64,000 nt of DNA from Negativicutes bacterium (GTDB lineage Bacteria > Bacillota > Negativicutes > UBA1444). This document shows positions 21,290 through 33,998 of the stretch, piece by piece. Each line of letters starts with the position of its first letter. The stretch's first letter is position 1. The notes beneath the pieces were generated by a model. The model had not been told where the DNA came from, made no database searches, and saw only the letters and a list, made by a program, of their open reading frames with translations. A program made the position numbers and the translations under genes. The stretch is taken from the NCBI GenBank assembly GCA_963665275.2, contig CAXXIN010000007.1, positions 384,001-448,000 of the forward strand, read 5' to 3'.

Positions 21290-23558
21290 TCATATTCGCG
21301 ACCGTCGATCCACTTCCTCCATGCCCAACAACTTTTTTATCAGCCCGATTACTTCTCGTTGCTCACTCACCAGATACTGCGCGACCGTCGAGCGGACCCC
21401 CTATCTTGATCGTCACCGTTTCTTCCGGCAAAGCCTGAAACATATCTTCATCGGTCCAGTCATCCCCGCAGGCAAGAATGAAGTCATAAGGAGTTTCACT
21501 CAGTGCCGCCAGCGCCGCGACTCCTTTATTGGCGGCTTTGGCACGGACTTCCACAACCTTGTTGCCATCCAGGACTTCCATATTGGGTCCGGGAAAGCAA
21601 TTTGTTCAATTCAAATTTAAGTTCCTGCGCCATAAAATCGGCGGATTCCGCATCAGACAGACGATAATGCCAGGCAATCGAGCACTCTTTCTCTTCCAGA
21701 AAGGAAGCGGGCAAACGCTCGACAAAAAGTTCAAGCAGGGGAAGGATTCGCTGTTTCCAGCGGTTGTCAGGGAAAACCCGCTTGCGCCATATTCCGCCGT
21801 ACCGCTTCATCCAGGCGCCATGTTCAGCAACCAGACTCATACGCAAATTGCCAAACTGCGATTGGAGAAACTCCCGCGGCCTTCCGCTAACGATAGTGAT
21901 ATCATTGCGCGCATCAGCCGCCAACTCTAGCAACACATCCAAGATCCCAGCATCAGGAAGAGCCTGATCGGGCGTTCGCGCGATCGGCACCAGAGTCCCA
22001 TCATAGTCAAAGAACAAAGCCCGACGATTCGCCTGGGCATATTTTCGGCCGATCAGATCCGTCTTGGCGGCAGTCAGCATTTTGTCAGCGGTTTCTTGAT
22101 TCGCAGCAGACGTATCCATCAATTCATGCAAAAAAAATCCGTCCCCAACGGTGGACATCATGCCTTTTTACACTATCCTTCATTGCAGACATTCGGGATG
22201 CCTGCTCTTCGATTGGCATGATCAGCGCTTGTTGGATCGCGTCGGACATTTTCTTCACGACTGTTTAGGATTTATGACCAGTGCTTCCGGCAATTCACGC
22301 GCCGCTCCTGCCATTTTCGCTGAGAATCAGAACTCCAGTATCGTCGATCCGTGACGCAACGAACTCTTTGGCAACCAGATTCATCCCGTCACGCAGCGGT
22401 GTGACCAAGGCGACGTCCGCCGCCGCATAAAGAGAGCTCAACGCCTGCAAGCCAAGATTTTTGTACAGATAGGCGATAGGCGCCCAACCAATATCGCCAA
22501 AGCGCCCATTGATATGTCCGACCAACTCATCAATTTCCCGGCGCATATCCTGATAACGGTCCACGCCAATCCGCGACGGAACTACCAACAAGAGCATGAC
22601 GACCTTGTTATGCCACTCCGGGTGACGTTCAAGAAACAGTTCATAGGCCAAAAGACGTTTTGCGATCCCCTTGGTATAGTCTAAACGGTCAACGGACAGG
22701 ATCGCCATCTGCCTGACTAGTTTACGGCGAATTACGTCTGCTTCTCGACGAACTTTGAGCGATCGGGCCGTATCATGATAGCGGTCAAAATCTATCCCTA
22801 TGGGAAATGCGTCCACCCGAATCTCCCGGTTTTGATGCATTATGCGGCCGATGTGGTTCTGATAACCAGCCAGACGCAACGAAGACGTCAAAAAATGCCG
22901 CACATAATCGATGGTATGAAAGCCTATTACATCAGCGCCCAGAAGCCCGTCCACCAACGCCGTCGCCCATTTTCGCGGCAACATCCGAAAAACTTCATAG
23001 GCCGGAAACGGGATGTGCAGAAAAAACCCTATTGAATTGCCGGGGCAGCGTTCCCGTAGCATGGCGGGCAACAACATAAAGTGATAATCGTGAATCCATA
23101 CCACATCACCAGGTCGTAACAGGTTCGCGACGACATCGCAGAAACGCCGGTTCACTTCTTCATATATTTGCCACATCGGCTCTTCATAAACGGTAAGCGT
23201 GGGAAAATAGTGAAACAATGGCCAAATTGTCTTATTGCAAAAACCCAGATAAAACTGATCCATCACGTCCTGTTCCAAAAATACCGGATCGCAACCATGC
23301 TGTTCTATCAACTGTTGGCGAACCATCGGCTGATATTCGTTCGCAATTGTATTTCCGGGCCAGCCCACCCATAAGAACTCTGACAGTTCAACAGGATTTT
23401 CCATTTTTCGCCGATCCAGGAACGCACCGAGCGCGCTAACCAATCCGCCCGCACTTGGCCCCCATCGTCATTTCTCCATTTTCGATGCCGACGGTCATCG
23501 GCAACCGATTGGAAACAATAATCAGACGGCCTTCATGTGCACCTGCTGATTCAGTCAT
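21290..23558 (-). CDS. Bifunctional trehalose-6-phosphate synthase/phosphatase (OtsA-OtsB fusion), split by frameshifts
   Basis: N-terminal [40 protein letters not shown]; the linker reads across indels into a HAD domain ([18 protein letters not shown]). Confidence 0.88.
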
Positions 23559-23710
23559 GATAGCCACCTCCAGTCAATGAACTGTTCGCCCCATAAAGCT
23601 GCGTGCAGGAAACAGTGAAACAATGAAGAATTCTAACCCACATGTGAATATAGCGATTTTGCAGAATTGTTATTTTATTATACCATAAACACCCATAAGG
23701 GAGGTTCGAC

Positions 23711-26700
23711 ATGAACGCATCGACATGGTACAAAGACGCAGTGATCTATCAGGTACATGTCCGATCCTTTGCCGATTCCAACCTCGACGGCATCGGTGAC
23801 TTTCCCGGATTGACGGAGAAACTCGACTATATCGTCAATCTGGGAGTCACGGCACTTTGGTTGTTGCCCTTCTACCCATCGCCGCTGAAAGATGACGGGT
23901 ATGATATTGCCGATTACCGCGCCATCCATCCTGACTATGGGACAATCAGCGACTTCAAACGTTTTTTGAAAGCGGCCCACTCAAAAGGATTGAAAGTCAT
24001 CACCGAATTAGTCCTCAATCACACTTCAGACCAACACAGTTGGTTTCCAGCGTTCCAGGAAGGCAAAACCAGGCTCCCGATACCACAACTACTACGTATG
24101 GAATGATAGCGACAAAAAATATGCCGAAGCCCGGATTATTTTCAAAGATTTTGAAGAATCCAACTGGAATTGGGATTCTACAGCGCAAGCGTACTATTGG
24201 CATAGATTTTATCGGCACCAGCCGGACCTGAACTTCGAAGAACCTGCCGTAAAAAAAGAAATGCTAAGAATCGTAGACTACTGGCTTTCCATGGGAGTTG
24301 ATGGGTTGCGGCTGGACGCTGTACCATATCTCTATGAAAGGGAAGGGACTGACTGCGAAAATCTTCCTGCAACACACGCTTTTCTTAAAGAGTTACGCCA
24401 CCATGTCGATAGCCGCTATCCCAATCGGATGCTCCTGGCCGAAGCCAATGGCTGGCCCGAAGATGTCGTGCAGTATTTCGGCGATGATGACGAATGTCAC
24501 ATGGCCTTTAATTTTCCATTAATGCCGCGTATTTATCTTTCTGTAGGAATGGAAACCGCCTGGCCGGTTATCGATGCGATTTCAAAAACGCCGGCAACCT
24601 CAGAAAAAAGCCAATGGGCACTCTTTCTTCGCAATCATGATGAACTGACCATGGAAATGCTGACCGAAGAAGAACGCGATTTTTTCGTGAAACTTTATGC
24701 ACCTGATCCCCGTTCGCGCATCAATCTCGGCATTCGTCGCCGCCTCGCGCCTTTATTGAACGGCAACCGACGCAAGCTCGAACTGCTGAATGCACTGTTG
24801 TTGAGTCTTCCGGTTCGCCTGTCATTTACTACGGCGACGAAATAGGCATGGGCGACAACATTTATCTCGGCGACCGAAATGGAGTCCGCACCCCGATGCA
24901 ATGGTCCGCCGATCGAAATGCCGGATTTTCCCAGGCCAATCCGCAAAAACTGACTCTTCCTGTCATTACGAGCCCCAATATCATTATGAAAGCGTTAATG
25001 TCGAAGCCCAGGAACAGAATCCATCCTCTTTTCTCTGGTGGCTGCGTCGTCTGATATCGCTGCGAAACCGTTACCCGGCTTTCGGGCGGGGCTCAACCAT
25101 TTTTCCGGCATCCGACAATGACAAGGTATTGGCTTTCATACGTATCTCCAGCGATGAAATCATTCTGATTGCCGCCAACATGTCCCGGTTCGTCCAGCAT
25201 GTCAACCTCGACCTTTCAACCTGGACCGGCATGGTTCTCCGGGAAATCATGGGGGGCATGATTTTTCCGCCCATTGTTCCCGGTCGTTACGGGCTAAGCC
25301 TTGGACCTCATACTTTCTACTGGTTCCGGCTTGAAAAGAAACAGCTGCGCGGACGCCCGCTGTGCGACACGCTGGAAATGACAGCTGGAGAGCTCGCAAC
25401 GCAGGAATTATCCGCAATGGAAGATCTGTTATCACCAGCGCTCTGGCAAAAAATCAATTTGAGACTGCCGGCGTTCCTTGAAGCGTTGCCATTGCAACCG
25501 GTGGGTTGCAGCGTCCGCGCGGCCACCATCATCGACGGCTTCATTCTCCCCCAGCGGTCGCCACGTGTTGTATATCGTCCGGGCCGAAACGCCGGCGATT
25601 TCATCCATTCGGGTCGCAGTGGCTCTTGCTTTATATCATCGCGCCTCGGACAAACCGGATCGACTGCTGGCCAGGCTCCGTATTGCTGACATCGTTTACG
25701 AATTGGCTGACGCGACTTTGGACAGCGCATGGCAAGCCTGGCTTTATGATTTTTCCAACACGCAGCGCCGCCTTCATGGAAGCTTTGGAACTTTGGCCAC
25801 CTCCCGTTTTTTCAGCCTATACCAAGCCACCGGAAGTGTGTCGGCCGGAAAATGGTGAATGCAGATCACAATCACCTTTCGCTATTCTTCCGCCCCCTAT
25901 CATGTGTTGAAAATTTTTCGTCAACTGGACGAAGGCGCCCATCCAGAAAAAGAATTGGCCCGCTTCTTGCAAGAACAAACTGAGTTCAAAAAAGCACCGG
26001 CCATACAGACTTCCATTGAGTATGTCGGCAACAATGGCCTCCCCAGTACTTTTGCTGTCCTGCATGCTTATATTCCTCATCGCAGCGACGGTCTACAGTA
26101 CACGCGCGACAGCCTCATGCCTTTCTTTGAAAGCGCGCTGACGTCTGCCTCCGAACTGGAAAAACTGCTGCCGCCCAGCCTCTCTCCCCTTCGGCTTGCT
26201 TTGAATCCTCCCAATGATGCGGTTCGATTATCCATTGGGCCCATGATTGAGACAGCCGGCCGTATCGGCGCCCTAACCCATGAATTGCATGTCGCACTAT
26301 CATCAGCTCCTGCCGATATTGTCTTTGCTCCAGAACGTTACACAATTCACTACCAAAAGCAGCTTTCACACGCCATGGCGCGACTGCTGGACTTTTCGCT
26401 GTTGCAACTCATGGAGCTTCAACCCTTGTTAGAACCCTCGCTTCAGCGGAGCTTTGAATCCATCCAGCGCCGCAGGCCTCAAATGGAATCGCTGTTCAAG
26501 CAAGTGGCTATTAAACCGATCTCAACCTATCGAATTCGCGAGCATGGCGACTATCATTTGGGCCAGTTGCTGGTCGGAGAACACGGCGAACTTTGGATAA
26601 TCGACTTTGAAGGCCAACCGGCTCGTCCCCTGACGGAACGTCGCATCAAACGTTCTCCGCTGCGAGATGTCGCCAGTATGTTATGGTCTTTTTACACCTG

Positions 26701-27037
26701 TGTTCACAAGATGGCACGTAGCCATGCCGCCAGCAGTTTTCCCGGATCCGACCCTTTACAGATCACCAAGGTGGCTGATAGCTGGTGCCGTTGGGTTTCG
26801 TCCGCCTTTCTCAGAGCTTATTTTGACGCTGCCCGCGCATTACCTTCGGACCATCCCGCAGGCATTCATCGAATCCATGACGCGGCGCTGCTGTTGGATA
26901 GTTTCTGCCTGGAACACGGCCTGGAACAGCTAGGCCGGGACGTTATCCGTACCGGACGTCCGGATGAGCTCAACCTCTCAGGATTGCTATTCTGGTTGGA
27001 AAGCCTATCCGCCGGCGCATCGCACGCTAAGCACTGA
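23711..27037 (+). CDS. treS: Trehalose synthase TreS fused to maltokinase (Pep2/Mak), split by frameshifts
   Basis: [49 protein letters not shown]; C-terminal [21 protein letters not shown]; at least 5 indels. Confidence 0.9.
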
Positions 27038-27061
27038 ACCGGCAATCCTCTGCATCCATCC

Positions 27062-27091
27062 GAAACGAGCATTCATGCTCGTTTCTTTTTT
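27062..27091 (+). terminator. Intrinsic terminator
   Basis: GAAACGAGCA-TTCA-TGCTCGTTTC followed by TTTTTT. Confidence 0.85.
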
Positions 27092-27186
27092 CACCCTATC
27101 CTTCAGGGATAGGACCCAATGAAAAATCCATCCCTGCACGCTACATTAAATTGTCAGAAAATGAATTATAATTTAATTATCAGACA

Positions 27187-27204
27187 ATGTGCATATTTTC
27201 ACAT
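27187..27204. promoter_or_regulatory. Possible Rex-type operator
   Basis: ATGTGCA-TATT-TTCACAT resembles TTGTGAA-N4-TTCACAA; lies just before the RBS of the reductase operon. Confidence 0.45.
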
Positions 27205-27224
27205 GCACCCAAGGAGGAATACAA

Positions 27225-28271
27225 GTGCGGCTACTCAGAAATTTGCTTCTCCTCGCCGTCCCGTTACTGTTATTGGCAGGCTGCGGAGCGCAACCGGCGG
27301 CCCAGGCGCCGGGTCTGCAGAAGACGTCAGCGACTGCGGCGGCTCTTTCCGCCTCCCCTTTTTCCCTGCTTCGACAAAACAGCGACAGCTATCTGAAAGC
27401 CAATCATCCGCTGTATATCGAGGCTGGTGAAATCTATGAAAAAGTGGTGGTCAAGGCCGATCCATCGTATTATCTTGTAGATGTCCGCTCGGATGAACAT
27501 TTCGCCAAACACCATATCCCCGGCTCAATTCATATTGCTTACGCCGATACTTGGCGTTCCAGTAAAACGGAGTTCCTGCCCCGTGATAAAAAAATCATCG
27601 TCATCGATTATTCGGGCCACACTTCCAGTCAGGTTGCCGCACTTTGGTCCATGATGGGTTTTGATGCGGTCGCCATGAAACATGGCATGGCAGGCTGGTC
27701 CAAAGATAAAGAGGTCATCGGCGGTTCTCCCATTCCCTGCGAACCCAAAAACTTCGCTGTAGTAAAAGATTCCACTCCCAACCAAACGTACGACTTTCCA
27801 TCCGTGGAAACGAAAGCTTCCAGCTTCCCGGAACTACTGCAACAAAGAGCGGAGGCCGCCACCGGCAAACCCGTCGTAATGCAGGCGGATGAGGTGCTTG
27901 CCAAAGTCTCTGCCAAAACAATTTTTGTACTTGATGTACGAGCACCGGAACATTTTGCCGCCGGTCATATCGCCGGCGCCGTCAATATCCCTTTTCGCAG
28001 CTTGATGGACGAGGCTAACCTGAAAAAGCTGCCGCCCAATCAGCAGGTCGTGGTTGTATGTTATGACGGGCATGCCGCGAGTCAGGCAGTCCGGGTCCTC
28101 AACCAGTTGGGCTACGATTCCGTCTCGATGCGCGATGGAATGAGCCTCTGGACCGGAGACGTCAATGTCATCGGCGCCCCATCGATAGCCTGCACTATTC
28201 CTGAACGCATCACAGCCGCTCTGAATGCCCCGCTCAATCCGGGCCCCAGCACGGCCGCCACCTGAGGGTAA
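27225..28271 (+). CDS. Double-rhodanese lipoprotein, probable selenoprotein with C-terminal Sec-Gly (SrrE-like)
   Basis: GTG start after AAGGAGG; lipobox LLLAGC; two rhodanese domains (DVR..HIPG, DVR..GHIAG); in-frame TGA 28263-28265 then GGG TAA and a SECIS-like hairpin. Confidence 0.85.
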
Positions 28272-28300
28272 CCATATTGGCAGCCGGTCGGCTGCTGTAA
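28263..28300 (+). promoter_or_regulatory. Bacterial SECIS-like element
   Basis: UGA followed by hairpin UGGCAGCC-GGUC-GGCUGCUG; apical loop ~20 nt after UGA and begins with G. Confidence 0.7.
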
Positions 28301-28357
28301 CGGGTATCGCGGGTAAGAGATAAACTGAAATATTCTTGACCGAAAAGAGGATTTTGG

Positions 28358-30603
28358 ATGCGAAACATTAGCAGGAGAGCCTTTCTGCAAGTAGCGGCCG
28401 GCGCCGCCACAGTAGGTGTTGCCGTCCCCCAACTCATGGATATGAAGGCCTTCGGCGCTTCTGTCGCCGATGCGCCTGTGACCAAGGTTCCCACCTATTG
28501 CAATGGCTGCTCTACTGGTTGCCCGATGTTCGCGTATGTCAAGAATGGGCGACTGTGGAAACTCGAGGGCCATCCGGTAGCGATGAAGAATTACGGGACC
28601 CTCTGCGCCAGGGCCTATGGCGTAGCTTCCGACCTATACAATAAGGACCGGGTTCGCCAGCCGATGAAACGCGGCGCCGACGGGAAGTTCCAGCCGATCT
28701 CTTGGGATCAGGCATTCAAGGAAATTGCCGAAAAGCTGACCGGCATCATCGATAAGAATACCGGCAACTCAGTCGTGTGGATGGCCCACGGCGGCAAAGA
28801 TACCTATGGAAGCATGTTTCTGGATGAAATCGGTTCTCCGAATTTCATTACCCACTATTCAACCTGCTTCACCTCCAAAACCAACGCTTGGGACAAAATG
28901 GTGTCCAACCAGCTGACTGTTGATATCCGCCGGTCCAAGTATATGCTGTTCGCCGGCAGGAACTACGGCGGCGCCATTATTCCTGCGGCCATGAAACAAT
29001 TGACAGCGGCCAAAGGCCAGGGACGCAAAATTGTCGTAGTAGACCCGCGTCTTTGTGAACTTGCCAAAATAGCGGATGAGTGGATTCCCATTCGTCCGGG
29101 AACAGACTTGGCATTTTTTCTCGGAATTGCCCATACGCTCATCAGTGAGAATCTCTACAATAAAACTTTTGTACAAAAATATGTTTTCGGGTTTGAAGAA
29201 TTTTGGGCTGCCAACCGTGATTTCTCTGCGGAAAAAGCTGCTACCATCTGCGATATCCCGGCAGAGAAGATTCGGGATATTGCCCGCGATATGGCCAAAA
29301 ACGCGCCGGCGGCTTTCCTCGATCCCGGTTATCACGGTCTGCACAATCACTATGTGAACAGCACCCAGATCGCTCAGGCCAATGTCATTGTCAACGCCCT
29401 GCTCGGCAACTTCTATCAGCAGGGCGGCCTGATGCCGTCGGCCCGGCCCACGCTCGGGCAGCCTCAAATTCAGCCAAAGCGGCTACAGCCGGAAAAAGGG
29501 CCCGCGGGTCGATGGCGCCGGCGTTCCCAACGAATATCCGACAGTCGGAGCCTGGCCGGGGTATTGCCCAGCATATGCCCGACCTGATCGCCAAAGGCAA
29601 AGTCAAAGCTATTTTTATGTATCACTTCAATCCGCTGCGCACGGCTCCCGATCCGGAATACCAGAAGAATATCGCCAAGGCGGACCTGGTCGTCACCATC
29701 CCCGATCGACTGGAACGAGTCATCCTACTACGCCGCCCACTATATTTTGCCGGAGCACTATTTTCTGGAGCGGATGGAAGCGCCAAAACCGGTTTCCGGC
29801 AATATCAGCCATGACTTATCCGCAAATTGCCATGCGGATGCCGGCGGTCAAGCCATTGCATGACACCAGGCCTCTGCTGGAAATCATGCAGGGCCTCACC
29901 AAAGCGATGAAAATCGACGATCTGTATCCTTTCACGAGTGGAAGACGAGATCAACGCGGCAATCGCCCCGCTGGGAATTGACAAGGCCCGGATCTCCAGA
30001 CGGAAGGCTGCATCGAACTGCCGACTGGCGCATCAAACCGGGTTTTCCTGAAAAGGATGGCAAACCGGCCTGTGGCACTTTTACCGGTAAAATAGAGTTC
30101 AGCATCGGCGCGTTCAAACTTCACGGACGTCCTTGGCGTTCCCACCTGGATCCCGCCGCTCGTCAGCCCCAAGGGTGACGACGAGTTTCGGCTCATCCAC
30201 GGCAAGCAGCCCTGGCACTCCCACTCTCAGACCAACAACACGCCGTACCTGCTGGAAATGACTAAGAGCTACCATGGGACCTGGATGTGGATGAACCGCA
30301 AGCGGGCAGAAAAGCTTGGACATCCGGAACGGTGACAAGGCCACCGTCGAATCCCGGATCGAATATCCGGGCCAGAGCGCCCCGCATCGTCCGAAGAAAC
30401 CTATGCAGGTCAAAGTCACGGATATGCTGTATCCGGAATGTGTCTGGATCCCCTCGGCCCATGGGTGCTTCTCACCCAACATGACCTATGGCTATGGCAA
30501 AGGCGCCAACTATAACGATTTCGCGGCTTCCCGCGTTGAGCCGCTGTCCGGCGGCTGCATGGTTCAGGAAGTTATCGTCAAAGTCCGGAAGGGGGCCCTC
30601 TGA
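28358..30603 (+). CDS. Tat-exported Mo-bisPGD oxidoreductase catalytic subunit (PsrA/PhsA/SrrA clade), split by frameshifts
   Basis: SRRAFLQ Tat motif, CNGCSTGC...C Fe-S, HYSTCF putative Cys ligand, VVDPR, PIRPGTD, C-terminal HSHSQT / WMN / EPLSGG; ~6 indels after 29500. Confidence 0.88.
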
Positions 30604-31142
30604 TGCCCAGTTACGCCATGTTGATCGATGCGTCGAAATGCACCGGCTGCGGAGCCTGCCGCGTCGCCTGCCAGATGCAATGGCAGCTGCCGCCGGATCG
30701 TTTCTACAACCGCCTGGAGTTCCGCGAAAAAGGACAATATCCCAAAGTCAAACAGGAAATCTTTCCTGTCCAGTGCATGCACTGTGACAATCCCCCCTGT
30801 GCGACGGTGTGCCCCACGAAAGCAACTTACAAAACCGCCGACGGCATCGTGCACGTCGACCCCAAGAAATGTATCGGCTGCAAAATGTGCATGATGGCCT
30901 GCCCTTATGACGTGCGCCAGCCCAACGAAAAAGGGATCGTCGAAAAATGCCGTTTCTGTGATGATTATATCGCCCGAGGCGAACAGCCTCCCTGTGTCAC
31001 TACCTGCATGAATACGGTTCGCGTATTTGGCGACCTGGATGATCCCAAGAGCGAAATTCGCGCCTTACTGGAAGAAAAGCAGGTCTACACACTATTGCCG
31101 CATATGGGCACCAAGCCCCGAGTATTCTATGTCCGAAAATAA
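30603..31142 (+). CDS. 4x[4Fe-4S] electron-transfer subunit (PsrB/NrfC-like)
   Basis: CTGCGACRVAC, CMHCDNPPCATVCP, CIGCKMCMMACP, KCRFC...PPCVTTC and GTKP. Confidence 0.93.
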   Translation: MPSYAMLIDASKCTGCGACRVACQMQWQLPPDRFYNRLEFREKGQYPKVKQEIFPVQCMHCDNPPCATVCPTKATYKTADGIVHVDPKKCIGCKMCMMACPYDVRQPNEKGIVEKCRFCDDYIARGEQPPCVTTCMNTVRVFGDLDDPKSEIRALLEEKQVYTLLPHMGTKPRVFYVRK

Positions 31143-31782
31143 CATTGCCGCAGCCGATCTGTTCCTTGAATTGGCAAACTTCTGGCAGCCGCCTGATCAG
31201 GAATTTTGGCAGGAGCTGTCGGTCGGTCTGGTTGACAGGGAGATTGCCGAACTGGCAAAACACGCCGGTTATTTACCCCAGTTGCAGTTGCCTGGTCTTT
31301 TTGCCGATTGCCTGCCAACCCTTGCCTCGCTGCAGTCCTTTTTCATTCGCTGTTTTATCGGCATCGGCCAAAAGTCAGCCATTCCCGTCGAATCCATCTA
31401 CAAAAAATGGACGGAAGATCAGACAACGCGCCTGCCGATCGCTGGAAGCACTGGCTATCTGATGGGAGATCCTGCTCTCCATGCCCAATATTTACTTACC
31501 CATTACGGACTCACTATCCCACCTGATTACCGGATGATGCCGGACCACCTGTCCCTGTTGCTGGAACTTGCCGCATTTTTGCTGCGAAACCGCACAGATG
31601 AAGAAGCCCAGCTCTTTTTAGCCCAACATCTTGACTGGATCGGCAAGTTCGAAGAGGCGCTCATTGACTTGGAACCTGAAAACGCAGCAGATCATGGGGC
31701 CCAACGATTTTACCAGCTGGCACTCCAAACAATCAAACAAACTGTCGATTGCCAGCTGATGAAATATTTCCTCGTTCAGTAA
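31129..31782 (+). CDS. TorD/DmsD-family maturation chaperone
   Basis: PVESIY, PDHLSLLLE and FLAQHLDW motifs. Confidence 0.9.
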   Translation: MSENNIAAADLFLELANFWQPPDQEFWQELSVGLVDREIAELAKHAGYLPQLQLPGLFADCLPTLASLQSFFIRCFIGIGQKSAIPVESIYKKWTEDQTTRLPIAGSTGYLMGDPALHAQYLLTHYGLTIPPDYRMMPDHLSLLLELAAFLLRNRTDEEAQLFLAQHLDWIGKFEEALIDLEPENAADHGAQRFYQLALQTIKQTVDCQLMKYFLVQ

Positions 31783-31813: not shown

Positions 31814-32761
31814 ATGTTTCAATTCATGAACAAGAAACTCGTGACCTATGTAGCCCTGCTCGTTTTGGTGGTATTCGCCGCAGGCTGCGGCTCATCTCCC
31901 GCGCCTGCTCCGACGCCTGCGGCTCCCGCAGCCTCTGCTCCCGCCATTGACAAAGCTGCGCTAACCAAAGAAGCTGCCTGGGATGGGTACAAAAAAGTCC
32001 TGACCGATGTCAGCGGCAAAACGTTCCCGCTCGACCCTGCTAAAGCCAAAGAGCTGCTCACCGGCAACGAGAGCAAGTATCTGGTCGTCGACCTGCGCAG
32101 CGCCGAAGACTATGCCAAAGGCCATGTCAAAGGCGCAGTGAACATTCCTCTCGCACAATTGCCGCAAACCCTGGACAAACTGCCGATGGACAAAACCCTG
32201 ATGCTGTACTGTTATACGGGACAAACTTCATCAATGACCATGGTTCCGCTGAAGTATTATGGCTATAAAGTGGTATCCATCTCCCGCGGTTTCCCTTCTG
32301 TTGAAAAAGCCGGCTTCGCCGTTGATACCACTGCTGTCGCCTTTGCCCCTGTCGCCGCCAAAGCTCCGACCGACCCCAAAGCGGTTGCCGCCCTGGAAGG
32401 CCTGAAAGAGGCACTGGACTCACTGGTCAAGCAATTTGCCGCGAAAACCCTCATCGTTCCTGGCAAGGACGTCAAAACGCTGGTTGATGCCGGTGCTGAC
32501 AAATACTACATCGTCGACCTCCGCGCTGCCGATGACTTCGCCAAAGGATATGTTAAAGGCGCGGTGAACGTTCCGCTTGCCAACCTGGCTACTGCAATGA
32601 AATCGTTCCCGAAAGATAAAACCATCGTTCTCTACTGCTACAGTGGCCAGACTGCCGCCATGGCCACCGTCCCCCTGAAAGCGGAGGGCTTCAAGCTGAT
32701 TTCCATCTCCACCGGATTCCCTGGCGCCGAGGCTGGCGGATTCGCCATCGAGAAAAAATAA
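31814..32761 (+). CDS. Double-rhodanese lipoprotein (SrrF-like)
   Basis: Lipobox FAAGC, Pro/Ala linker, two near-duplicate rhodanese domains (CYTGQT, CYSGQT). Confidence 0.9.
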   Translation: MFQFMNKKLVTYVALLVLVVFAAGCGSSPAPAPTPAAPAASAPAIDKAALTKEAAWDGYKKVLTDVSGKTFPLDPAKAKELLTGNESKYLVVDLRSAEDYAKGHVKGAVNIPLAQLPQTLDKLPMDKTLMLYCYTGQTSSMTMVPLKYYGYKVVSISRGFPSVEKAGFAVDTTAVAFAPVAAKAPTDPKAVAALEGLKEALDSLVKQFAAKTLIVPGKDVKTLVDAGADKYYIVDLRAADDFAKGYVKGAVNVPLANLATAMKSFPKDKTIVLYCYSGQTAAMATVPLKAEGFKLISISTGFPGAEAGGFAIEKK

Positions 32762-32850
32762 CTGAGCAAAACCCTGCATGAGAAAACGAGGGGGTGTAAA
32801 GAAAAACACCCCCTCCAGGCTGAAAATTACAGCTTGGGGAGGATTACGTG

Positions 32851-33998
32851 ATGAACCAGAGAACCGGTCTCGCCATATCTGCCGCATTAACCGCAATTGG
32901 CATAGTTGGAGCGCTGATGTTGCTCATTAAAGGTCATGGAGTGATGGGTACTTCCCATCAATTCCCTTGGGGAATATTTATCTCCACTTATCTCTATTTT
33001 GCACTGATTGGCTCGGGACTCTGCCTGATCTCCTCTCTCGGTTGCGTGTTCGGCATCGAGCCCTTCACCGCCATTACAAGACGTTCAGTGGTCCTGGCAA
33101 TGATCACCTTGTCGGCCGCCTTTCTCATTATGGGGCTGGAAACGCCACAACCGCTGAACATGATCTATATGCTATTCAGTCCCAATTTTTCGGCCGCTAT
33201 TTTTTGGATGGGCAGTCTCTACGGAGTGTATCTGTTTTTTCTCGTGGGCGAGTTCTGGTATTTGATCGTTAAGGCTTCCCCCTCCCGCGGCCACTTTTTC
33301 GGAGTGTTGGCATTCTTTGCAGCTTTGGCTGCTTCTTCCAACCTGGGCGCTGTGTTCGGTTTTCTCCACGCACGGCCTTATTGGGAGGGCGCCTATATGC
33401 CGGTCTATTTCATCTTGACCGCTCTCCCTGTCGGGTTCGGCAGTGCTGGTCATTTTCTATTATCTGTTGGAAGGCCGAGAGTCCGACTCGCCGATAGTGC
33501 CTGCCACCGCCAAATTAATGGCCCTGTTTCTCTCCATCACGTTGTTCTTTTCGATCTGGAAGCTGCTCACTGGCCTTTATGGTGACATTCCCGGCAAGGT
33601 CGAGGCCTCCGCAGCCTTGCTCAAAGGACCCTACGCCCTCAATTTTTGGGGTCTGGAAATTGTGATCGGCATGATCGTTCCTTTATTCCTGTTGCTGGTC
33701 AAGCGGACGCGCAGAGCTTCGTTCGTTGCTGCGATTAATGTCAATGGTTGGGCTCTTCTTCATGCGTTATGATTTAGTAATCGCGGGTCAGGTAGTGCCG
33801 CTGGATGTTATCGACCAAACTCCGCTGCCTGTAACCTACCTGACCTATTTTCCCACTTGGGTTGAATTAGCAGTTGTCTGCCTGGGATTCGGTTTCGTTG
33901 GACTCGCCTACTTGTTCGCTGAAAAGAAACTGGACCTGGATGTGCGAACTCCAGCTCCTGTTCCAGAAAAGAACAACTCTGCAGAATTTGCGGGGTAA
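32851..33998 (+). CDS. NrfD/PsrC-family membrane anchor, split by frameshifts
   Basis: PWGIFISTYLYF, ARPYW, MRYDLVIAGQ and YFPTWVE motifs; 2 indels (~33430, ~33730). Confidence 0.88.

Follow-up and report, generated by a model that had tools for sequence, protein, structure and literature searches.

A candidate selenocysteine-tailed rhodanese lipoprotein encoded beside a PsrA-type molybdoenzyme in a Negativicutes bacterium

Does the gene for an exported rhodanese protein in a Negativicutes bacterium end where gene callers place its stop, or is that stop, a TGA, read as selenocysteine (Sec)? The question is raised by a stretch of 64,000 nucleotides (assembly GCA_963665275.2, contig CAXXIN010000007.1, positions 384,001 to 448,000), which we call the window and whose own numbering is used here; it lies on contig C7 of a genome of 3.97 Mb in 20 contigs, and all features discussed are on the forward (+) strand. 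A preliminary description of the window, made from its letters, had proposed that the open reading frame (ORF) beginning at 27225 encodes a hidden selenoprotein. Our comparison across genomes suggests that the UGA at 28263 is very probably decoded as Sec by SelB and tRNA-Sec, and that the gene is a missed selenoprotein. With somewhat less assurance, though still with good confidence, we take its product to serve the neighbouring reductase as a genuine accessory protein with a Sec tail; how the chemistry would run in detail is less sure.

Gene callers end the rhodanese ORF at 28265, which gives a protein of 346 amino acids (27225-28262). Direct reading of the sequence places the GTG start at 27225, 6 nt past an aaggagg at 27212-27218. 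The first in-frame stop is the TGA at 28263-28265, followed by GGG at 28266-28268 and TAA at 28269-28271, just as the preliminary description had reported for the 3' end. With the TGA read as Sec, the full coding sequence would span 27225..28271, 348 codons from the GTG through Sec347 (TGA) and Gly348 (GGG) to the TAA, and the C-terminus would read ...GPSTAAT-U-G*. A hairpin located 20 nt downstream, in the 3' untranslated region (UTR), would direct this decoding, leaving a mature protein that ends in ...STAAT-Sec-Gly.

Protein homologs were collected by a word-indexed search, and the best 120 of 167 matches were sorted, together with the window protein, by their C-termini. Eighty-four end at the called stop in …LNAPLxPGPS[TA]AAT or a near variant. 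Fourteen more distant homologs end in …PATCSG, …PATCGG, …ASCG, …ASCS, …GCG or …GPGCS, and the Cys of these tails aligns exactly at the TGA position (alignment A1), followed by one or two small residues; the Cys-Gly ends that had been suggested as something to look for in orthologs therefore exist, as Cys-Gly or Cys-Ser-Gly tails in distant homologs. Another 23 have no such tail, among them P0077 (…SAPAT), which falls inside the Sec clade of the tree described below and was probably mis-sorted by the pattern. Judged from their sequences, these C-terminal classes are the classic pattern of Sec and Cys homologs. An exhaustive search of representatives found further Cys-tail clusters as well as six clusters (P0146, P0148, P0158, P0163, P0096 and P0102) ending, in the manner of the Halobacteroidaceae Sec-type loci, in ...DGG, ...GGG, ...GAG or ...TAG, which may be additional truncated Sec-tail proteins.

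The same pattern was seen in the DNA. All nine family-level loci that cover the C-terminus read ACC TGA GGG followed by TAA or TAG. A scan of species representatives gave 58 loci, of which 54 were examined (L031-L084, the four most distant being omitted) and two ran off their contigs; every one of the 13 loci of the '…AAT' type reads TGA GGG and then a stop. Two members of the Halobacteroidaceae have the arrangement in other words, …DGG TGA AGC TAA in Natroniella sulfidigena and …EAG TGA GGT TAA in Fuchsiella alkaliacetigena. Removal of seven duplicates left 17 distinct Sec-type DNA sequences, and a class-wide search, in which 16 of 401 genomes had the gene, added two more, both with TGA GGG TAG and the hairpin. 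The first in-frame stop is thus TGA in 19 of 19 distinct orthologous sequences (17 Negativicutes-type, 2 Halobacteroidaceae), followed in each by one Gly or Ser codon and a second stop, which bears out the conserved TGA-GGN-stop that the preliminary description had hoped to see. The second stop is TAA in 5, TAG in 8 and TGA in 1 of 14 Negativicutes-type sequences. The Cys-tail loci (n = 7) all have TGT or TGC at the TGA position, end in TGA (2), TAG (3) or TAA (2), and carry the ribosome-binding site of the next gene directly after the stop, without a hairpin. Since both the second stops and the Cys-form stops vary, the identity of the stop is free to drift at this divergence, yet the first stop is invariably TGA.

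The hairpin itself, UGGCAGCC-GGUC-GGCUGCUG, is located at 28278..28297. It resembles a bacterial Sec insertion sequence (bSECIS) and has an 8-bp stem, a conserved 6-bp core (28280-28285 with 28290-28295) and the loop GGUC at 28286-28289, 20 nt past the UGA, where the preliminary description had placed it; alone it folds with a free energy (dG) of -11.5 to -12.6 kcal/mol. The published bSECIS model has a loop of 3-9 nt, a stem of 4-16 bp, a G in the first two loop positions, a spacing of 16-37 nt and a minimum free energy (MFE) of at most -7.5 (PMC13188914). All 17 sequences analysed fall within these limits, with a stem of 6-9 bp, a loop of 3-4 nt, a distance of 18-22 nt from the UGA and a 48-nt MFE of -9.0 to -17.6 kcal/mol; the hairpin-only dG ranges from -6.4 to -11.5. 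The loop begins with G in all 17 (GGUC in 7, GUU in 7, GUC in 1 and GGA in 2). A covariance model (R1) found all 17 Sec-type sources, none of the seven Cys-type loci and no other place in the own genome. A search of Rfam over 27000-31000 with E up to 10 returned chance-level matches to miRNA and snoRNA families and no SECIS family. A terminator reading of the hairpin was ruled out, as it has no T-run and was not called in a consensus scan.

Compensatory changes keep the stem paired, and the covariation that had been proposed as a check is present. In a register-corrected count of the 17 sequences, anchored on the conserved opening G, the core pairs in 102 of 102 cells, and five of its six pairs have double-sided changes (C-G/U-A, A-U/C-G, G-C/A-U/C-G, C-G/U-A and C-G/A-U); a seventh pair is G-C in some sequences and A-U in others. 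The stems of the two Halobacteroidaceae have almost no sequence in common with the rest, but the geometry is the same. The MAFFT DNA alignment (A2) left L038-L042 one column out of register, and in the covariance-model realignment (A3) L039, L056 and L065 are still mis-registered, so formal counts on A3 understate the pairing. On this model-fitted alignment 89.2% of cells are paired; shuffles give 82.1%, and none of 500 came as high. Double changes occur in six cells, a count matched by 1 of 500 shuffles, and sliding the partner strand by 1-3 columns leaves at most 50.5% paired.

Decoding of this kind would need the Sec machinery, and the absence of selA, selB and selC had been named in advance as a result that would speak against it. 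All three are present, and so is selD. The tRNA-Sec gene (selC) scores 63.8 bits and has the anticodon tca according to ARAGORN, selA (531 bits) and selB (354 bits) are adjacent, and selD has one in-frame TGA, being itself Sec-containing (G000:C14:37616-38536). An fdhA gene about 20 kb past the window end (G000:C7:468716-470347) also has one in-frame TGA, in the context CART-U-HSPT. These two are genuine selenoprotein genes and serve as internal SECIS references: the element of fdhA, at 18 nt from the UGA, is GUGGCC[GGUCU]GGUCAC, that of selD has its loop, CGGGU, at 16 nt, and both loops are G-rich and of the same type as that of the rhodanese hairpin. A non-standard genetic code was rejected, since 1846 long ORFs of this genome end in TGA. 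Across genomes, all 15 that have the TGA form also have selA, which passes the curated cut-off in 14 and is in three pieces in the remaining one; of seven with the Cys form, two have it above the cut-off, the other five giving nothing or chance-level matches of 18-23 bits; the genomes are mostly metagenome-assembled genomes (MAGs) and related, which makes this co-occurrence supportive and gives it no statistic. GrdB (PF07355) had no match in the own genome and none in the control genomes either, and is therefore uninformative.

Several observations weigh against reading the UGA as Sec. A single codon separates it from the real stop, and all 14 Negativicutes-type sequences have GGG there (invariant in L022-L043, L089 and L090), whereas a translated codon should drift among synonyms; in the same gene single-codon use is seen in 0 of 12 invariant Gly columns and in 1 of 48 invariant four-fold-degenerate columns, and elsewhere in the gene GGG is a minority Gly codon. 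The nucleotides 3' of the UGA are thus constrained as RNA, which fits a recoding context. Translation past the UGA is supported only by the GGT (Gly) and AGC (Ser) codons of the two Halobacteroidaceae loci and by the Cys-Gly and Cys-Ser endings of the Cys forms. The 66-nt fold of the hairpin region is unremarkable (z = -1.35), the hairpin-only dG lies above -7.5 in three of the 17 sequences (-6.4, -7.2 and -7.4), and the formal covariation on A3, with its three mis-registered rows, is modest. A rough implementation of the bSECIS rule, applied to ORFs of at least 150 amino acids in the own genome, found a similar hairpin after 66 of 1846 TGA-ended (3.6%), 84 of 1722 TAA-ended and 29 of 1014 TAG-ended ORFs; at this chance level in a single genome, the significance of the hairpin rests on the comparison across genomes. 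The sequences compared are related to one another and their counts are not independent, and the Cys-form genomes are MAGs, in which missing selA possibly reflects incompleteness.

Could the TGA then be an ordinary stop, with a protein ending at Thr346 and a hairpin that acts in regulation or RNA stability, as a processing site, an attenuator or a translational-coupling device before psrA? The invariance of the GGG at the nucleotide level is what an RNA motif would show, hairpins of the loose bSECIS type follow 3-5% of ORFs whatever their stop codon, the TGA is where the protein stops for all gene callers and for RefSeq, and no Rfam family matches the region. An ordinary stop would leave unexplained why TGA comes first in 19 of 19 sequences when the second and Cys-form stops vary, why homologs have a Cys at that very position followed by Gly or Ser and a stop, and why the spacing of 18-22 nt and the G-first loop resemble the fdhA and selD elements of the same genome. 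It would also leave unexplained the absence of the hairpin from seven of seven Cys-form loci and the presence of selA in 15 of 15 TGA-form genomes; the hairpin, moreover, lacks a T-tail and drew no terminator-like call. We consider an ordinary stop highly improbable. None of the outcomes was seen that the preliminary description had listed as refuting its selenoprotein reading, namely a genome without sel genes, homologs ending in TAA or TAG with no Cys or Sec tail, or an unconserved hairpin.

Which protein would end in this residue? Its signal peptide (27225..27284), MRLLRNLLLLAVPLLLLAGC, ends in a lipobox-like L-A-G-C (LLLLAGC), and Cys20 (codon 27282-27284) is at least 90% conserved in the alignments. 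By the lipobox pattern, the protein is predicted to be lipid-anchored and exported. Pfam PF00581 matches in two stretches (115.1 bits, cut-off 22.2), of which domain 1 lies at 27420..27704, with approximate limits taken from Pfam and the fold model, and domain 2 covers residues 221-310 in its best Pfam stretch (27885..28154). The catalytic-loop residues are those read in the preliminary description, Asp128 in domain 1 (VIDYSGH, 27606-27608) and Cys279 in domain 2 (VVCYDGH, 28059-28061). Domain 2 accordingly has the active-site Cys of a catalytic rhodanese and domain 1 does not; with Asp128 at the catalytic-loop position, domain 1 is unable to carry a persulfide. The conserved C-terminal arm, LNAPLNPGPSTAAT-U-G (residues 333-348, 28221..28268), rises from the base LNAPLN. 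An AlphaFold2 model from a 68-row alignment has a mean predicted local distance difference test score (pLDDT) of 90.3 and a predicted template modelling score of 0.84, with pLDDT below 50 at residues 341-348, and so predicts a folded two-domain body with an unstructured C-terminal end. Foldseek against PDB returned generic tandem rhodaneses with E down to 3e-13 but template modelling scores of 0.26-0.29, none of them an informative counterpart for the way the domains are arranged or for the arm.

The loop residues differ among the tail classes of the best 120 of 167 homologs. In most tail-less relatives both loops have Cys. In Cys-tail forms domain 1 has Cys in 13 of 14 and domain 2 has Gly in 13 of 14, and in Sec-tail forms domain 1 has Asp in 82 of 84, with domain 2 having Cys in 68, Asp in 15 and Gly in one. 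The loop cysteines may have been lost from the rhodanese domains as the tail nucleophile arose. A quick maximum-likelihood tree of 44 rows (41 of the 120 homologs, the window protein and two loci) places the tail-bearing forms in one clade of 35 rows (support 100), within it a Negativicutes Sec clade of 18 rows (100), and nests the Halobacteroidaceae Sec pair with Cys forms (98). With two separate Sec groups, in Negativicutes and in Halobacteroidaceae, the Sec/Cys state would have switched at least twice. A Negativicutes-type Sec-tail gene with 56% identity (L043) lies on a 3.8-kb contig that was binned to a Paludibaculum sp. MAG, which is acidobacterial; mis-binning is likely here, rather than transfer.

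The gene directly after that of the rhodanese protein (28358..30600) encodes a molybdopterin oxidoreductase of the PsrA/PhsA/SrrA type with a twin-arginine translocation (TAT) signal, frame-broken in this assembly. An intact ortholog of 733-745 amino acids with a TAT signal stands directly downstream in 17 of 20 tail-bearing loci, and the contigs of the other three end early. Its closest solved structure is the polysulfide reductase of Thermus thermophilus (2vpw, full length, E 1.8e-91), and its best NCBIfam match is PhsA thiosulfate reductase at 378 bits, below the equivalog cut-off of 694, so that it is not PhsA proper. With iron-sulfur (FeS), NrfD-type and TorD-like neighbours, the TAT molybdoenzyme stands in the operon context of a Psr, Phs or Srr system.

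We predicted the complex of the two proteins for the Cys-tail pair of locus L045, using PsrA residues 43-733 and residues 52-359 of the rhodanese protein. The pair scored 0.70, compared with 0.01 for the best of three controls. Among solved complexes 58 of 80 reach such a score, as do 2 of 110 mismatched pairs, figures that apply only approximately here because the alignments were our own. The runs agreed in at least 95% of contacts, and the partner had a pLDDT of at least 86. Domain 1 and the tail segment 344-349 (LNYIPK) make up the part of the interface that is predicted with confidence; in the window protein this segment is matched by LNAPLN (333-338). The predicted complex supports binding of the rhodanese protein to PsrA. 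We know of no solved complex between a Psr enzyme and a rhodanese.

From these results we think it fairly likely that the arm is the chalcogen-carrying element and that the protein docks on the neighbouring reductase. The arm base LNAPLN and domain 1 would dock on the TAT-exported PsrA/PhsA/SrrA-type molybdoenzyme. The selenolate would acquire sulfane sulfur, with polysulfide, S8 or thiosulfate as the source and with or without Cys279 of domain 2 as an intermediate, and would hand it to the reductase as a Se-S adduct, after which sulfide would be released and the selenolate regenerated. In this role the protein would carry the substrate in tethered form, much as Sud does for polysulfide reductase. 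As to the substrate, we lean towards sulfane sulfur. The preliminary description had pictured a swinging Sec arm that shuttles sulfur or selenium between the rhodanese Cys and the molybdoenzyme. Such an arm is in part backed by the predicted docking of the Cys-tail ortholog pair and by the low confidence of the tail in the fold model; an obligatory role for the rhodanese Cys does not stand. Fifteen of the 84 Sec-type proteins have Asp at both catalytic positions and no loop Cys, which rules out a Cys279-to-Sec relay as a general requirement and leaves the tail residue as their sole candidate nucleophile besides Cys172 and Cys323, two residues that co-occur in 84 of 84 Sec-type rows. This count belongs on the negative side of the balance, as do three further points. 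The prediction concerns an ortholog pair, and its rhodanese protein shares 39% identity with that of the window; the last ten tail residues, including the Cys, lie outside the confident interface; and both psrA and nrfD are frame-broken here, the operon being possibly defective or the assembly error-prone.

Two other roles for a real Sec arm have to be considered. The srrABCDEF genes of Bacillus selenitireducens form a respiratory selenite reductase operon with 38- and 45-kDa rhodanese proteins, and, likened by gene set alone, it has the same TAT molybdoenzyme, FeS protein, NrfD-type anchor, TorD-type chaperone and two rhodaneses, SrrE and SrrF; the passages describing the srr operon give no Sec or tail Cys for them (PMC12481199). 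The operon in the window could accordingly be an Srr-type selenite reductase and the protein a counterpart of SrrE, whose arm would capture Se(0) or selenide as a Se-Se or Se-S adduct, or deliver selenite. The gene set and its similar sizes speak for this, as do the presence of Anaeroselena agilis among the carriers of the Sec form, the Cys-tail homologs in Bacillales-type MAGs, and the membership of SrrA in the PsrA/PhsA/SrrA lineage, in which Mo is ligated by a Cys (PMC7331816). The molybdoenzyme nevertheless finds its best family and structure matches among thiosulfate and polysulfide reductases, and within the PsrA/PhsA/SrrA lineage the substrate cannot be read from sequence. Natroniella sulfidigena, which also has the Sec form, owes its name to the production of sulfide and is a sulfur reducer. 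A selenite reductase seems to us a possible but rather unlikely identity for this operon.

The arm might instead act within its own protein, in the manner of the C-terminal Gly-Cys-Sec-Gly of mammalian thioredoxin reductase, forming a selenenylsulfide with Cys279, Cys323 or Cys172 and resolving persulfides or disulfides without entering the molybdoenzyme. The universal presence of Cys172 and Cys323 in the Sec-type rows, with Cys323 located 24 residues before Sec347, the retention of Cys279 in 67 of the 84, and the position of the last ten tail residues outside the confident predicted interface would all suit such an arm. Against it, Cys172 and Cys323 are lacking in 8 of 14 Cys-tail forms and Cys279 in 15 of 84 Sec forms, which leaves no universal intramolecular partner; synteny with PsrA in 17 of 20 loci and the predicted docking of the tail base favour an intermolecular role, and an extracytoplasmic lipoprotein has no obvious reductant besides the respiratory complex. 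An arm confined to its own protein is in our judgement improbable.

No model of NCBIfam release 20 claims the rhodanese protein. It scored 35.5 bits with NF041203 (rhodanese_LYCAU, cut-off 115), 29 bits with NF045694 (the rhodanese/DsbD fusion TsoB, cut-off 805), and 66.5 and 58.3 bits with the GlpE/PspE models NF001195 and NF007627 (cut-off 102). A 2026 catalogue lists 119 prokaryotic selenoprotein families, five of them rhodanese forms given as UxxS, UxxG, CxU (NF041203 rhodanese_LYCAU), UxxG and UxxxxU (NF045694 TsoB), and a C-terminal U-G-stop rhodanese is not among the families as listed there (PMC13188914). Those five share a rhodanese fold with Sec and were predicted by the same logic of Sec/Cys homologs and bSECIS; judged by the listed motifs, their Sec lies in internal motifs, whereas here it is penultimate on an arm and domain 1 has Asp. 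The table of that catalogue also includes 'star' selenoproteins, UXX-star (NF041114/NF041211), KCU-star (NF033934) and SaoC (NF040734, Cys-Sec-COOH), which likewise have Sec in the last few residues, a bSECIS in the 3' UTR and a gene that looks complete when cut at the UGA; they differ in having unrelated folds and contexts, and their models are not among the matches of the rhodanese protein (PMC13188914). C-terminal Sec being known from these, a 3'-UTR bSECIS has precedent. In the full-text literature we found no description of a Sec-tailed rhodanese family; supplements of surveys could hold an unlisted candidate. The internal motifs of the catalogued rhodanese forms we take to be the catalytic loop. 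We suggest, with confidence and doubt in about equal measure, that the present proteins constitute a sixth, distinct rhodanese selenoprotein family, 'TUG-star', in which the chalcogen has moved from the loop to a penultimate Sec on an arm that docks on PsrA or SrrA and delivers a Se-S or Se-Se adduct, the loop Cys being lost in step and the Sec/Cys state having changed at least twice.

Known systems combine some of these properties. In Wolinella succinogenes the periplasmic polysulfide-sulfur transferase Sud, and in Aquifex aeolicus SbdP, are extracytoplasmic rhodaneses that bind polysulfide sulfur and pass it on to a Psr/Sre-type molybdoenzyme. They are soluble, single-domain proteins that carry the sulfur on the rhodanese-loop Cys; the protein described here is a two-domain lipoprotein whose nucleophile, Sec, is on the tail. 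Flexible C-terminal redox arms that move from one site to another are found in mammalian thioredoxin reductase (...Gly-Cys-Sec-Gly) and in DsrC (...Cys-x-COOH). The Sec-Gly-stop is common to thioredoxin reductase and the window protein, which has no vicinal Cys (Thr-Sec-Gly), and the penultimate chalcogen arm is common to all three, their folds and domains of life being different. The multihaem polysulfide reductase MccSep (ExtKL) of Geobacter sulfurreducens is a selenoprotein encoded near a rhodanese-like lipoprotein, ExtH (PMC13510729, PMC5877670). Sec in polysulfide reduction and a rhodanese-like lipoprotein encoded beside the reductase are shared features; in MccSep, however, the Sec is in the haem reductase itself, and the passages on ExtH do not call it a selenoprotein.

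If the decoding proposed here holds, at least 83 database clusters are two residues short, including the RefSeq protein of a cultured species. The preliminary description had expected standard annotation to miss the Sec, and this is the case for 83 of 83 database homologs of the type, which stop at the TGA, as does WP_413782617.1, the ortholog of Anaeroselena agilis, annotated as a 'rhodanese-like domain-containing protein' of 342 amino acids. The truncated records probably lack their only reactive residue and could be put right by a profile combined with a TGA-GGN-stop rule. On the biochemical side, the family points to Psr/Phs/Srr-type reductases that can draw substrate from a protein-bound selenolate arm; such a 'TUG-star' arm would be a bacterial extracytoplasmic counterpart of the swinging arms of thioredoxin reductase and DsrC. 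Its members also form a natural series, from Cys in both loops through a Cys tail to a Sec tail, with which one may ask why selenium was chosen for extracytoplasmic chalcogen transfer, where there is no thiol reductant. They would offer a clear natural case of a bacterial SECIS located wholly in the 3' UTR, with Anaeroselena agilis, Natroniella sulfidigena and Fuchsiella alkaliacetigena as cultured hosts.

The remaining genes of the operon follow psrA. A four-cluster 4Fe-4S subunit similar to PsrB, TtrB and DsrO, with a Fer4_11 match, is encoded at 30603..31142, and a chaperone of the TorD/NarJ type (Pfam PF02613) at 31027..31782, the longest ORF, the start of which is probably later, near 31130. 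A second tandem-rhodanese lipoprotein (31814..32761) has Cys in both loops (LYCYTGQ and LYCYSGQ) and no Sec tail; it may be an SrrF-like partner. Its match to the LYCAU model NF041203 is sub-threshold (61 bits, cut-off 115). The membrane anchor of the NrfD/PsrC type (32809..33983) is frame-broken in this assembly.

Upstream, a terminator-like hairpin with a T-run (27062..27085), found in the consensus scan and also as an inverted repeat, closes a treS-like unit, and the rhodanese gene would thus open a new transcription unit. The sole promoter-like site upstream of the operon, TTGTCA-18-AATTAT (27150..27188, site 27151-27180), was identified from consensus matches, and a 16-nt imperfect inverted repeat, ATTGTCAGAAAATGAA / TTAATTATCAGACAAT, overlaps it. 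On this weak evidence the region 27150..27188 is a possible promoter and operator for some regulator. Compared with the intact orthologs of locus L035, the psrA-like (28358-30600), nrfD-like (32809-33983) and treS-like (23669-27031) genes are each broken up into two or three frames, and the frame of the rhodanese gene itself is intact. Because the breaks affect three unrelated genes, they suggest indel errors of the assembly more than three pseudogenes. Further upstream, the ORFs at 21526-22161 and 22295-23443 look like fragments of a single trehalose-phosphate gene.

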